Part shown: one piece after another, positions 4,547 through 22,422 of the stretch
Layout of the letters: every line of letters starts with the position of its first letter
Position numbering within the stretch: position 1 is the first letter of the stretch
IMG/VR virus record: IMGVR_UViG_3300033066_001266
Coordinates: 1 to 22,422 of that record
From: a virus
Taxonomy: Duplodnaviria > Heunggongvirae > Uroviricota > Caudoviricetes
Reading direction: 5' to 3' (one strand)
Length of the DNA: 22,422 nt
Notes under the pieces: model-generated
Told to the model about the DNA's origin: nothing
Database searches by the model: none
What the model saw: only the letters and a program-made list of their open reading frames with translations
Made by a program: the position numbers and the translations under genes

Positions 4547-4609
4547 AATTAGGGGCATTCGATTTTATTCATTTGCCACTCCACCAGACTATTTCTGTTA
4601 AAATAGACG

Positions 4610-4682
4610 TTGACCCTACTGGGTATGATCCAGTGACCTAATGATTATGAGTCATTTGCTCTACCAACTGAGCTAAGGATCA
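4610..4682 (-). tRNA. tRNA-CAT, most like tRNA-Ile2 (elongator Met not excluded)
   Basis: TGATCCT-TA-GCTC-AGTTGGTA-GAGC-A-AATGA-CTCATAA-TCATT-AGGTC-ACTGG-ATCATAC-CCAGT-AGGGTCA-A: full cloverleaf with a body similar to enterobacterial ileX. The T loop ATCATAC is atypical and CCA is not encoded. Confidence 0.82.
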
Positions 4683-4710
4683 ATAATTGACTAACAATCA
4701 ATTAATTAAG

Positions 4711-5103
4711 TGGACCCGACCAGAATCGAACTGGTGTCCAAACAAATACTTAACCTTTAAGTTACGTGTGTGTAGGTTTTTTATTGTCGTATTAAGTTAT
4801 AAATAACACTACCGACTATCTCATTGTAAATGAGCAACTTGTAATCTATTCGTCAACATACGAATTAATTAGTAGGGAAGTTTATCTTTTTATATGGGAT
4901 AAAACACATATTTGTTGGTTTTAAATTAGGCAGCAACCGCTACTCTTTCTTTGCTAAAGCATCCTGCGATGATTTTAGCGCCAACTGCTTGATGATCAAC
5001 TGTGTTGTCATTTATTAGTTTATATACATTTGTCAAAGCGGTATATACTTCCGCTTACACGCCTATCAACCAAATACCTTGCTGTCAAAACCAAAACGGG
5101 CCC
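4711..5103 (-). ncRNA. ssrA: transfer-messenger RNA (tmRNA)
   Basis: 5' GGGCCCG-TTTTGGTTTTGAC pairs with 3' CGGGTCC-A and includes G3:U70. T arm ACCAG-TTCGATT-CTGGT; pk1-like GCGG/CCGC; resume context AATAAAT-GAC. Tag frame 5009-4926 encodes DNTVDHQAVGAKIIAGCFSKERVAVAA*. Confidence 0.93.
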
Positions 5104-12590: not shown

Positions 12591-12701
12591 TTTTACTTGA
12601 TTCAAATTATTTTCGGTTTCTTAAAACATTGTATATACTTCTCACGCTCGAAAGCAGTACCTGATAAATACGATTTTAATTGGCTTCGTAATTTGAATTT
12701 G

Positions 12702-12775
12702 TAGTCTTTAATGGATTCGAACCATTGGCCCCAAACTTAGAAGGTTTGTGCTCTATCCAGCTGAGCTAAAAGACC
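12702..12775 (-). tRNA. tRNA-Arg(TCT)
   Basis: GGTCTTT-TA-GCTC-AGCTGGATA-GAGC-A-CAAAC-CTTCTAA-GTTTG-GGGCC-AATGG-TTCGAAT-CCATT-AAAGACT-A: canonical cloverleaf, 74 nt. Confidence 0.95.
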
Positions 12776-14372: not shown

Positions 14373-14378
14373 GATTTG

Positions 14379-14453
14379 CAAGTGAGATTGGATTTGAACC
14401 AATACCCTAAAGACCAAATGCCTTTAGCAGACTACCAATTAGCGTACTCACTT
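14379..14453 (-). tRNA. tRNA-like element with an extended anticodon stem; identity unclear (TTT or TGG in the loop)
   Basis: Acceptor AAGTGAG/CTCACTT (8 bp with C-1:G73) and T arm ATTGG-TTCAAAT-CCAAT. The D stem is weak; the anticodon arm is CTAAAGG-CATTTGG-TCTTTAG (7 bp). Confidence 0.55.
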
Positions 14454-19360: not shown

Positions 19361-19686
19361 ATAAACGGTTTGCCCCAATTTCTATCCATAAACCGCTATG
19401 TTGTACCCAAATCCAACAATTTTTTAAAATAAGAGGAGAGAATGTTTACTCCCCTCTATTTTATTCTTCGCTTTAACACTAAAGCGGTTTTAAGAATCAT
19501 TTGAAAAGCGGTTTGCCTCGTTATTAACCTAAATAACTGGGAAACCGCTTTGTAAGAACTGTTGTTTTACCTAAACTTGCCATTCCATAGTTGGTTTGAG
19601 TTCAGGTAAATATATTGAAGCCAATTGGCTAAATTATCATTTTAATTGTACCTCCTTAAATTAATGAATAGACTAAATAAAAAAGA

Positions 19687-19712
19687 GGAAGCAACTCTGT
19701 TGAGTCGCTTCC
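19687..19712 (-). terminator. intrinsic terminator after 19736..20173
   Basis: GGAAGCGACTC-AACA-GAGTTGCTTCC (one G-U) followed by TCTTTTTT. Confidence 0.8.
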
Positions 19713-19735
19713 CTTAGTCCATATTTCATTATCAA

Positions 19736-20173
19736 TTAAGACACAGGTGCAAGATCAACTACAGGTGCAGGTGCTGCAGCCAAATTGCTTGAATTCAGCC
19801 CAGGAGTAGTTGCATTAGCATTCAGGATAACATTCTCTGCTGTATTATTTTCGGTAGTCGTTACGTCAACTACAACAGGTGCTCCAAGCTCTTTACGAAG
19901 CCCAATAATTTCACTTACTTCAACGGGACCAAGCACTGTATGGTTAAATCTTCTACCATAAACAGGATCAGCTGTGCCTTCGTTGATCATTACCAAAACT
20001 GTAGTACCAGCTACAAGACTTGCTCTCTCGGCTACTGTACCAGCTACAACCATGGCACGATTAGGAAGTTTACCAGCAATAGGAGTTAACCAAACTGCGT
20101 CTTTGCCGTTCTTATCAGTCTTGTTTTCACCTTGGAAAGGACTAACAACTACAGCTACGATTTCATTGTACAT
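19736..20173 (-). CDS. hypothetical protein (145 aa), monocistronic, probably highly expressed
   Basis: Higher GC with GCT/CGT/AAC-type codons; strong terminator; beta-rich core and low-complexity Ala/Pro tail. Confidence 0.8.
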   Translation of the reverse strand: MYNEIVAVVVSPFQGENKTDKNGKDAVWLTPIAGKLPNRAMVVAGTVAERASLVAGTTVLVMINEGTADPVYGRRFNHTVLGPVEVSEIIGLRKELGAPVVVDVTTTENNTAENVILNANATTPGLNSSNLAAAPAPVVDLAPVS

Positions 20174-20235
20174 AAAACTTTATTTAAATTTTTGGAATTT
20201 CCCCCAGAATTCCTGAATATTGATTATAATCATTG

Positions 20236-20335
20236 AGGATAGGCGGGGGTAGCCGTCCTCTCTCAAATTGACGAAGGGTTGATAGGGGGAGAGTACTTGA
20301 GTATTATATACAGGGGGGGTTTTATATACGGGGGT
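20236..20335. other. G-tract cluster at the transcription strand switch
   Basis: G5 (20245-49), G5 (20285-89), G7 (20313-19) and G6 (20330-35) in AT-rich DNA; hairpin GAGGAT..GGC/GCC.GTCCTC at 20236-20260. Confidence 0.7.
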
Positions 20336-20359
20336 ACTTTATAATAAAGGTGCTTTTAC

Positions 20360-20390
20360 TTGGAGGATTAGTATTCTTTATGTATATTTG
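20360..20390 (+). promoter_or_regulatory. Bacteroidota primary-sigma promoter
   Basis: TTG (20360-62), 20-nt spacer, TATATTTG (20383-90), then CA; fits the -33/-7 TTTG/TAnnTTTG consensus. Confidence 0.6.
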
Positions 20391-20394
20391 CACT

Positions 20395-20532
20395 ATGATA
20401 CATAATATGATATTATTAGGATATAGAGTTTATAGATATTCTGGAGATCCACAGAAAAGGATGTTTATAGAGATGGTTAAGCTTGAGGAATATCCTCACC
20501 TTATATTTATAAAGAATAAAAAGCAGTTATGA
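20395..20532 (+). CDS. small hypothetical protein (~45 aa)
   Basis: ATG 20395 directly follows the promoter; its TGA overlaps the ATG of the methyltransferase stub. Confidence 0.5.
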   Translation: MIHNMILLGYRVYRYSGDPQKRMFIEMVKLEEYPHLIFIKNKKQL

Positions 20533-20570
20533 ATGTACTAAGCGTTTTTGATGGTATAATAATTAATTAA
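20529..20570 (+). pseudogene. stranded 5' stub of the C5 DNA methyltransferase gene
   Basis: ATG AAT GTA CTA AGC GTT TTT GAT GGT ATA ATA ATT AAT TAA = MNVLSVFDGIIIN*. NVLSVFDG is identical to motif I at the start of 21219..22361. Confidence 0.8.
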
Positions 20571-20610
20571 GTTTATTTGATAGTATGAAAAATTTGTCGT
20601 ATATTATATT

Positions 20611-21237
20611 ATGAGTTTAATATATTGTATAACAAATAGAATAAATAACAAAAAATATATAGGTCAAACTATAAATAGTGCTGATTTTAGACTTAGGAAA
20701 CATATAAGTTGTATTAATTGTAAAAATATTTGCTCAGCACTTTACAGTGCCATTAAAAAATATGGAAAAGAAAATTTTTTTATAAAAGAGATAATCTCTG
20801 GTGAATTTTCAAAAGAGGAATTAAATATTTTGGAGGAAAAATATATAAAAGAATATAATACTATAAGTCCATATGGATATAATTTACAAACAGGTGGTGG
20901 AAGTTTTAGAGTTTCAGAAGAAGTAAAAGCTAAAATGAAAGTAAAAATGAAAGGAAGAAAAATAACATGGGGGGATAAAGTAAGTGAAAGTATGAAAAAG
21001 AAATGGAAAGATCCTGAATATAGAAAAACTCAAATTTTACAAAGACATGAAAAGAGAGGAAAATATAAAGAAGGGATAGTTAAAGAAAAACTTCGTGTTA
21101 AAATAGATGAAGAAGAGTTTACAAACGATTATAAAGATGGAATGAAACTTAAAGAGTTAAAAACTAAATATAATATATCTGTTCCAACTATTTATAGAAT
21201 AATAAAAACTAATAATATATGCAAAAGAAGGGATTAA
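20611..21237 (+). mobile_element. GIY-YIG homing endonuclease gene (NUMOD3-like linker, C-terminal HTH)
   Basis: LIYCITNRINNKKYIGQT...RLRKH...LEEKYI...GYNL; SEEVKAKM..KMKGRK repeat-like segment; GMKLKEL.TKYNISVPTIYRII HTH. Confidence 0.9.
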
Positions 21238-22361
21238 ACGTTCTGTCGGTTTTTGATGGGGTGAGTTGTGGTAGGGTAGCGCTTGAACAAGCGGGTATCC
21301 AAGTAGATAGATACTTTGCAGCAGAGATAGACAAGTTTGCCATAAAGGTTAGTCAGGATAATTTTCCTGATATTGAAAGATTGGGGGATATCAGACATAT
21401 AGAAGTATCTGCGCTTCCCCTAATTGATTTATTTATAGGTGGTTCACCTTGCCAAAGCTTTAGTTTTGCAGGTAAGATGAAAGGAATGTCTACCACAGAC
21501 AATATTGAGATAACTAATCTTAGACAATACTTAGATTTAAGAGATAGCGGTTTTCAGTTTCAGGGTCAGTCTTATTTGTTTTGGGAGTATGTTCTTATCT
21601 TAGAGCAGTTAAGGGTTAAAAATCCCGATGTTTTATTTTTATTAGAGAATGTAGCCATGCATAAGAAATGGGAAGATGTTATTTCTCAAGCACTTGGAGT
21701 ACAACCCCATAAAATCAATAGTAATAAATATTCTGCCCAAAATAGAAAGAGACTATATTGGACTAATATACCTAATGTTCAAGATAAGGAAGAAGATGAT
21801 TTAAAGCTAATGCTTGCAGATGTACTTCTTGAAGAAGCAGATTTCACATTTCCCACTAATATAAGAATTAAATACATAGAATCAAGAAAGGAGAAAGGGC
21901 GTAGTAAAGGAGTTATAGAAGATTTTAATCAAAAAGCACCTTGCTTACTTGCCTCCATGTATAAGAATATGAGTCAACACACTATTTACAATAGAAGTAA
22001 AGGCTTTGGAGAAGTGGAAGCAATAGTTTCTGATGGGGATTCACTATTTGTTCAAGAGGGTACTAAGAAAGGCTTTGTAGAAGTTAAGAATGGTCAGTTT
22101 TTCGATTATTCATATCCAAAGTCTGCGACAAGAAGAGGTAGATTAATGAAAGATAAATCACATTGCCTTCTTGCATCTGCTAATAATTTTGTAAGATGGA
22201 AAGATAATACAATTAGATTCTTACATCCTATAGAAGCGGAGCGTTTGCAAGGTCTTCCTGATAATTACACAGCTTCTGTATCTACTTCCCAAAGACTTAA
22301 ATGCCTTGGTAATGGATGGAATGTTCCTACAATAACACACATATTTAAAAATCTATGCTAG
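21219..22361 (+). CDS. dcm: DNA (cytosine-5)-methyltransferase
   Basis: Motif I VLSVFDGVSCG, EID, GDI, motif IV GGSPCQSFS, motif VI LLENV, R.RLYW, motif IX EAERLQG, motif X LGNGW. No cognate restriction enzyme in the window. Confidence 0.95.
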   Translation: MQKKGLNVLSVFDGVSCGRVALEQAGIQVDRYFAAEIDKFAIKVSQDNFPDIERLGDIRHIEVSALPLIDLFIGGSPCQSFSFAGKMKGMSTTDNIEITNLRQYLDLRDSGFQFQGQSYLFWEYVLILEQLRVKNPDVLFLLENVAMHKKWEDVISQALGVQPHKINSNKYSAQNRKRLYWTNIPNVQDKEEDDLKLMLADVLLEEADFTFPTNIRIKYIESRKEKGRSKGVIEDFNQKAPCLLASMYKNMSQHTIYNRSKGFGEVEAIVSDGDSLFVQEGTKKGFVEVKNGQFFDYSYPKSATRRGRLMKDKSHCLLASANNFVRWKDNTIRFLHPIEAERLQGLPDNYTASVSTSQRLKCLGNGWNVPTITHIFKNLC

Positions 22362-22422
22362 ATATCAATACTATATATACTGGGGCAGCTCTCGCAGGTT
22401 CGGGAGCACTCATATATTCTTT

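Follow-up and report, generated by a model that had tools for sequence, protein, structure and literature searches.

A free-standing GIY-YIG endonuclease cassette that probably homed into a phage C5-methyltransferase gene and replaced its start

In layout, the closest published counterparts of the locus described here are the mORF gene hybrids of fungal mitochondria, reported in atp6 of Allomyces macrogynus (Paquin et al. 1994, cited in PMC3630166) and in atp6, atp9, cox2 and nad3 of Glomus (PMC3630166). The closest phage case is the MobA element of T4-like phages, a cassette of the HNH endonuclease gene mobA and gene 60 in the gene for the large subunit of topoisomerase II (bioRxiv 10.1101/2022.08.31.505936). 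An insertion of mobE in nrdA, described as ‘genes-in-pieces’, is also known from Aeromonas phage Aeh1 (Friedrich et al. 2007, cited in PMC10448857; PMC3045599). We studied a stretch of 22,422 nucleotides, hereafter the window, which is the first 22.4 kb of an 86-kb contig of an uncultured virus (IMG/VR record IMGVR_UViG_3300033066_001266, Caudoviricetes) with a G+C content of about 28%. In this window a gene for a free-standing GIY-YIG homing endonuclease lies between a short open reading frame (ORF), here called the stub, and an intact gene for a C5 cytosine DNA methyltransferase (methylase). The explanation we favor, with a probability of roughly 0.85, is that a cassette formed by a 5' spacer, the endonuclease gene and a replacement methylase start (the leader) homed into a resident phage C5-methyltransferase gene after codon 9-10.

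The window shares with the mitochondrial hybrids a free-standing endonuclease ORF (GIY-YIG or LAGLIDADG in their case) inside a protein gene, a diverged and mostly synonymous copy of one gene end, a native end left as an unexpressed remnant, and uninvaded close relatives that define the insertion point. The hybrids, however, replace the C-terminus (foreign end, endonuclease, native end), whereas the window cassette replaces the N-terminus, so that a new start codon is supplied from inside the endonuclease 3' end; here also the remnant is upstream, where it stays coupled to the preceding gene, and the invaded gene is that of a phage DNA methyltransferase. With all three elements present, the cassette works like an mORF gene hybrid in mirror image, but it has a different endonuclease clade and a different host and so does not belong to that group by origin. 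Like MobA, it is a homing-endonuclease cassette of phages that has entered one site of a conserved gene several times independently; both have occupied/empty pairs with clean ends and a diverged homologous replacement region (HomR in MobA) within an N-terminal extension of the downstream ORF. MobA, in contrast, deletes 55-75 nt of its target where the window cassette leaves a stub, and it encodes an HNH enzyme and splits its gene into two polypeptides that reassemble, with a translational bypass of 50 nt. The GIY-YIG enzyme, the methylase target and the single restored ORF, coding for one full-length protein with nothing to bypass, place the window cassette outside the MobA group. The T-even Seg GIY-YIG endonucleases and I-TevI (PMC2988022) have the same I-TevI-like catalytic domain, followed by a linker and a C-terminal helix-turn-helix (HTH) whose counterparts in the window enzyme are putative. 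I-TevI is intron-encoded; the Seg genes, like the window gene, are not in an intron, and they are present in some and absent from other related phages, with co-conversion of flanking markers. Seg and Mob genes are normally intergenic and cut a neighboring gene, whereas the window element lies inside a coding sequence and repairs it. In Aeh1, a free-standing endonuclease gene also sits in a phage protein-coding gene whose function is kept without splicing (as predicted here), but there the halves of nrdA each yield a protein, these assemble, and no replacement segment is duplicated, whereas the upstream piece in the window amounts to a remnant of ten codons that takes no part in the enzyme. In the literature searched, no 5'-end replacement cassette was reported for a phage methylase gene.

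The features of the locus are collected in Table 1. The TGA stop of the small upstream ORF and the ATG of the stub share an ATGA overlap, and the stub, translated from ATG 20529 to TAA 20568-20570, has 13 codons and reads MNVLSVFDGIIIN. The endonuclease ORF begins 40 nt past the stub stop codon and overlaps by 19 nt the methylase gene, whose N-terminus is MQKKGLNVLSVFDG. The NVLSVFDG codons at 20532-20555 and 21237-21260 differ at 7 of 24 nt, each time synonymously. A scan of all six frames across the window showed the motif [VIL]LS[VLI]FDG only at these two sites, so the match of stub and leader is not due to chance. A first-pass annotation of the window had described this layout correctly: a stub encoding MNVLSVFDG before its stop (20529-20570) and ATGA-coupled to the preceding ORF, a full methylase starting MQKKGL-NVLSVFDG over the endonuclease 3' end (from 21219), and the seven synonymous differences across the eight shared codons. 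It had also proposed that a free-standing endonuclease invaded motif I; the invasion is supported, but the site lies just past the FDG, at codon 9-10.

Table 1 Features of the window locus and stubs found at related loci (L numbers)
Feature	Position or locus	Strand	Remarks
Small upstream ORF	20395..20532	+	Mechanical ORF start GTG 20350; likely start ATG 20395
Stub, putative native methylase start left by the insertion	20529..20570	+	MNVLSVFDGI (20529-20558), 3 cassette-derived codons, TAA
Cassette left end and 5' untranslated spacer	20559..20610	+	Begins ATAAT, as in lineages B, C, E
Free-standing GIY-YIG homing endonuclease gene, 208 aa	20611..21237	+	PF01541; I-TevI-like catalytic domain, putative linker and C-terminal helix-turn-helix
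Putative cassette-borne replacement methylase start	21219..21260	+	MQKKGL (21219-21236) inside endonuclease 3' end; NVLSVFDG recopy 21237-21260
Intact C5 cytosine DNA methyltransferase gene, 380 aa	21219..22361	+	PF00145, E 2.3e-37
Stub	L035		MNVLSVFDGI..
Stub	L037		MNVLSLFDDI..
Stub	L042/L126		MNVLSLFDGI..
Stub	L048		MKILSLFDGIG..
Stub	L156		MNVLSLFDGI..
Stub	L173		..KLNVLSLFDY, then stop

In the proposed mechanism, the endonuclease would recognize and cut the beginning of uninvaded methylase genes, approximately their first 40 nt (ATGAATGTAYTRAGYSTTTTTGATGGNAT...), and the break would be repaired from an occupied genome, with the stub and the upstream DNA serving as left homology and the methylase body as right homology. 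The original ten codons would persist upstream as a dead stub, still ATGA-coupled to the preceding gene. The methylase would then be translated from the cassette ATG at 21219, gaining six residues and having codons 2-9 duplicated in a different spelling, and no splicing would be needed. That spelling would come with the cassette from a diverged donor allele and would protect the regenerated gene from the endonuclease.

A protein search covering 5.8 billion proteins returned four methylases with 74-75% identity to that of the window. Three of them start M(N/T)VLSVFDG(M/I)SCGR, with neither a leader nor an upstream endonuclease, and the nucleotides of two uninvaded genes starting MNVLSVFDG(M/I)SCGR (P0002 and P0005) are nearly the same as those of the stub. 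The empty alleles of the window's own lineage, A, were found at loci L027, L032 and L033, on contigs syntenic with the window, and their methylases are 76-77% identical to the window methylase body. At L033 a homologue of the small upstream ORF (78% over 45 aa) overlaps the ATG of the uninterrupted methylase; L032 has homologues of the upstream ORF (61%) and of the downstream AAA ATPase (68%); and L027 and L033 have a homologue of the 145-aa neighbor on the minus strand of the window (52-57%). At the nucleotide level the uninvaded starts read ATGAATGTAYTNAGYGTTTTTGATGGTAT... and match the stub through about 20558, which identifies the stub as the original start of the gene. The uninvaded relatives read ...GATGGTATA/ATT, so the native-derived portion of the stub probably reaches to about 20558 (ten codons, MNVLSVFDGI). 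The first-pass annotation had expected that endonuclease-free alleles would have the stub sequence contiguous with the methylase body, and such alleles were found in lineages A (L027, L032, L033), B (L141) and C (L004/L138). The converse that it had considered, a relative lacking the endonuclease and yet carrying the stub, did not appear among the relatives examined.

Two methylases from these searches have peculiarities of their own. P0005 (L032:450-2234) is a 594-aa methylase into which about 215 aa have been inserted in frame, between ERLQGLP (motif IX region) and the motif X block. This segment is of low complexity, is rich in asparagine and lysine and has no Pfam family on record; it may be one more mobile insert, translated along with the methylase. 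P0003 (Logan SRR23086375; 392 aa) has an N-terminal extension ending ..ATKGINVLSVFDG that resembles the cassette leader, and upstream of it there is a gene-free gap of about 500 nt where no endonuclease was called. It may represent a cassette whose endonuclease has decayed.

Searching IMG/VR with an exact 26-mer of the stub gave no match, and a degenerate stub pattern later gave 26 loci, most of them ordinary methylase starts and three of them empty versions of occupied phages: L141 shares the end of the sigma-factor gene with lineage B, and L004 and L138 share that of the DUF3310 gene with lineage C. When L138 (empty) was compared with L126 (occupied), the left flank aligned up to and through the stub at 92% identity. 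The alignment of the right flank, with 95.8% identity over 5.6 kb, sets in at codon 2 of the leader copy. A segment of 31 nt of L138 belongs to both alignments and is the duplicated target; the insert measures 691 nt. To the right of the insert the identity was 68%, 75%, 67% and 85% in successive windows of 60 nt, and beyond these 85-100%, mostly above 90%. Differences are thus concentrated beside the insert (63/210 versus 36/850 further away; Fisher p = 4e-24), and the divergent tract of about 210 nt, which contains 18 non-synonymous codons, is best read as co-conversion from a diverged donor, with the leader as its beginning. In the pair L141 (empty) and L037 (occupied) the divergent tract around the insertion point is only 36 nt long (9/36 versus 42/744 differences, p = 2.6e-4); of its changed codons, six are synonymous and one is non-synonymous. 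Both pairs therefore show presence/absence polymorphism at one site together with co-conversion of the flank. We place the insertion point just after the GATGGN that ends with codon 9, with an ambiguity of 2-3 nt because the cassette begins with ATAAT and the native codon 10 with AT.

The same comparisons bear on the idea that the whole module (stub, endonuclease and methylase) arose once and moves as a unit, in which case the window methylase would be foreign and no homing would have occurred here. Methylase genes do move often between phages, and the stub begins exactly at an ATG in every context, where its own ATGA would end any upstream frame entering it. But the window methylase body groups with its uninvaded syntenic relatives (76-77%) and not with those of other occupied loci (41-54% for full-length genes, the partial gene of L035/L036 being unscored). 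The endonucleases of lineages A, A', B and C, moreover, are 64-79% identical and their methylase bodies only 47-55%, whereas occupied and empty bodies within lineages B and C are 96-97% identical, with the divergent tract limited to 36-210 nt beside the insert. We thus consider a single origin of the module very improbable. Similar endonucleases next to diverged methylase bodies argue that the endonuclease and leader entered resident methylase genes repeatedly, and that it is the cassette that appears to have spread horizontally, not the whole module as one piece.

About 60 full-length relatives of the endonuclease (39-73% identity) were found, and the contexts of eight were retrieved (nine with the window). 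The endonuclease adjoins and overlaps a downstream C5-methylase ORF in all nine sampled clade members (44-73% identity), and a stub of at least eight codons is present in seven (the window and six of the eight others), 50-100 nt upstream of the endonuclease ATG in the six others. The same succession of stub, endonuclease and leader is thus known from at least six other phage lineages (loci L035, L037, L126, L048, L156 and L173). The genes upstream of the stubs are unrelated: a sigma-70 factor, a DUF3310 gene, a PAPS reductase and small ORFs. The lineage B stub carries the change G9D, as would a stub that is decaying. Patterns taken from the endonuclease alignment were too general and hit mostly distant GIY-YIG genes, with only L047 and L048 useful; of nine matches to a pattern joining the endonuclease end and the methylase start, four (L128, L129, L132, L133) were due to chance and had no endonuclease. 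A scan of GTDB species genomes gave only distant GIY-YIG domains, and no host was inferred. Independent assemblies from ENA, JGI and Logan show the same arrangement, which excludes an assembly artefact.

Other features of these phages concern their methylase genes. Occupied phages of lineages B and C have two or three tandem C5-methylase genes, the paralogues being uninvaded (L126:3368, L127, L130:4245, L037:5417, L042:6068). Next to the same endonuclease clade, inteins (PF14890, LAGLIDADG_3) interrupt methylase or neighboring genes at L172:2621-4576, L173:2620-4599 and L157:1-1576, which points to phage methylase genes as hot spots for several kinds of selfish elements.

A self-splicing group I intron or its relic, in which the stub, as exon 1, would be joined to the methylase body at about 21261, would also place an endonuclease between two parts of a gene. 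In favor of it, the terminal bases are those of group I introns, T for the stub and G for the putative intron (GATGGT / GATGGG), and the stub end of lineages B, C and D (TTTGATGG) pairs with CCATCAAA 17-25 nt downstream in a P1-like hairpin. Rfam, Intron_gpI included, nevertheless gave no match at E <=10 in window positions 19500-22422 or at E <=1 in L047, L048 and L036. There are 52 nt between the stub and the endonuclease ATG and 0 nt after the endonuclease stop, and for the stub and spacer of the window the predicted fold is not more stable than that of shuffled sequence (z = -0.14). The 3' end of the supposed intron also encodes a conserved methylase N-terminus with only synonymous changes between lineages, which would go unexplained if it were spliced out. 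An intron is accordingly an extremely improbable explanation. Two arguments of the first-pass annotation fit these results: that the gap of about 40 nt between stub and endonuclease has no room for a group I intron core, and that the host gene is restored without splicing, as an intact methylase ORF of 380 codons.

The favored explanation, homing of a cassette with its own methylase start, finds further support in the leaders. The extensions that cassettes encode before motif I are MQKKGL, MQTKIR, MQKEIK, MQSKNGL, MKNKSF and MKDF. Codon spelling was tabulated for six leaders, leaving out L173. In all six the Val codon changed from GTA to GTT or GTG and the Leu codon from YTR to CTN; the Ser codon changed from AGY to TCN or GGA in five, with L035 retaining AGT. 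The G+C content at third positions (GC3) of the first 20 methylase codons was 0.45 in the window versus 0.05-0.10 in its uninvaded relatives. Over the 14 codons past the six-codon extension, the leaders of lineages B and C have eight differences, all of them synonymous, a pattern that indicates coding constraint on the leader. The first-pass annotation was right that the endonuclease carries its own recoded N-terminus, which was not rewritten locally: the same codon changes in six lineages suggest that the leader is inherited with the cassette, its different spelling being that of a diverged donor allele with which the endonuclease travels.

Several observations weigh against the favored explanation or parts of it. 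Clade members L157 and L172 have no clear stub. The closest empty alleles of the window lineage have only about 72% nucleotide identity, none being near-identical, which prevents measuring how far the donor tract extends in the window, and with these distant alleles the clustering of differences beside the window insert was not significant (p = 0.19-0.35). BLAST against INPHARED phage genomes gave only distant methylase matches, relatives sought through the downstream AAA ATPase reached at best <=38% identity, and a metagenome scan with a pattern of the upstream ORF end found one unrelated contig and so no closer empty allele. Translation of the methylase from ATG 21219 is suggested by conservation of the layout. 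With regard to immunity, the newly spelled copy in the window still holds TTTTTGATGG, and occupied genomes of lineages B and C keep paralogous methylases with an intact target-like 25-mer start (L126:3368, L130:4245). Either recognition requires more than the bases of the 25-mer or the sites in the paralogues are tolerated.

These last two observations also fit a variant explanation in which the insertion is real but the leader spelling is irrelevant to immunity, being hitch-hiking donor sequence, and protection comes from the insertion itself or, for example, from methylation of the site. The tract of about 210 nt in lineage C, with its non-synonymous codons, is what plain co-conversion from a diverged donor predicts, and in T4 the polymorphisms of the MobA replacement region alone failed to block nicking (bioRxiv 10.1101/2022.08.31.505936). 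On the other hand, the six lineages share the same changed codons and a raised leader GC3 (0.45 vs 0.05-0.25), the divergent tract of lineage B covers only 36 nt around the insertion point, and with unchanged spelling the duplicated leader joined to the body would rebuild a complete target. The CNNNG cleavage motif of I-TevI, judged by eye, did not separate native starts from leaders. We regard hitch-hiking as unlikely, though a serious contender; the proposal of the first-pass annotation that recoding would remove the endonuclease's own cleavage site is a logical one.

The endonuclease matched PF01541 with an E value of 1.9e-7. Residues Y5, Y16, R27, H31, E75 and N91, which we take to be the counterparts of the I-TevI catalytic residues, were invariant in 27 homologues. 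A profile of this 27-member clade matched the I-TevI catalytic domain in PDB (1MK0/1LN0, E ~1e-10); the family profile was needed for this, since phmmer with the single endonuclease found no match in PDB. Matches of the C-terminus were weak: Mor (E 4e-4) and HTH_28 at residues 160-200, below Pfam cut-offs, and for residues 161-204 of the clade profile a resolvase HTH (E 0.02-0.1) and 2LVS (E 1e-4). The invariant residues and the match to the I-TevI catalytic domain indicate that the endonuclease is probably active. The predicted C5-methyltransferase has motifs I (FxGxxxG), IV (PCQ), VI (ENV) and X (GNxxxxP/V), present as VFDGVSCG, GGSPCQSFS, LLENV and LGNGWNVP.

Roughly 7 kb downstream of the methylase, the phage genome to which the window belongs carries a separate gene for an HNH endonuclease with a MerR-type HTH (G000:C1 29182-29673; L019:11183-11674), and L032 has an HNH_3/NUMOD4 gene in the equivalent neighborhood. 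The window also carries genes for four tRNAs (Ala, Met, Arg, Lys) and for a tmRNA with a 27-residue tag (1461-1536, 4609-4682, 4710-5103, 12701-12775, 14378-14453, minus strand), and ORFs are sparse from 13 to 19.7 kb.

The window spacer includes, at 20570-20586, a second and degenerate copy of the target core, AGTTTATTTGATAGTAT. An element TATTTGAT(G/A)G is found in the spacers, direct in the window, L035 and L173 and inverted in L037, L126 and L048. The direct element of L035 reads as a second, decayed stub (..NLISLFDSM), and the inverted ones (lineages B, C and D) pair with the stub end in a hairpin (z = -1.5 to -2.2). I-TevI is known to repress its own expression, and by analogy the spacer element could be a binding site of the endonuclease; it could also be an older stub carried along or an RNA hairpin. 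As a tentative extension, which we hold somewhat less likely than its opposite, the whole I-TevI-like clade (dozens of clusters at 90% identity) may have specialized on the first ~40 nt of phage C5-methylase genes as a self-repairing start-replacement cassette. The stub and the target-core copy of the spacer (TATTTGATGG, direct or inverted) would then be functional parts of the cassette, possibly as a left arm of homology when the cassette jumps from one genome to an unrelated one and as an operator or RNA switch that regulates the endonuclease gene, comparable to I-TevI autorepression. If this is true, it would be a general and so far undescribed route, free of introns and inteins, for homing endonucleases into phage coding sequence.

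Homing endonucleases are thought to survive within essential or useful genes only by means of introns, inteins or an intergenic placement. The cassette proposed here would be a third route in phages, in which a spare and differently spelled gene start rebuilds the host gene at the DNA level. Since the occupied/empty pairs give exact ends, the target duplication and the co-conversion tracts, the homing site and the immunity rule could be tested at the bench with short synthetic substrates. For genome annotation, short ORFs that repeat the start of a neighboring gene, and odd N-terminal extensions of methylases, are possible footprints of the element. Phage methylase genes, some of which also carry inteins in relatives, emerge as hot spots of selfish DNA.

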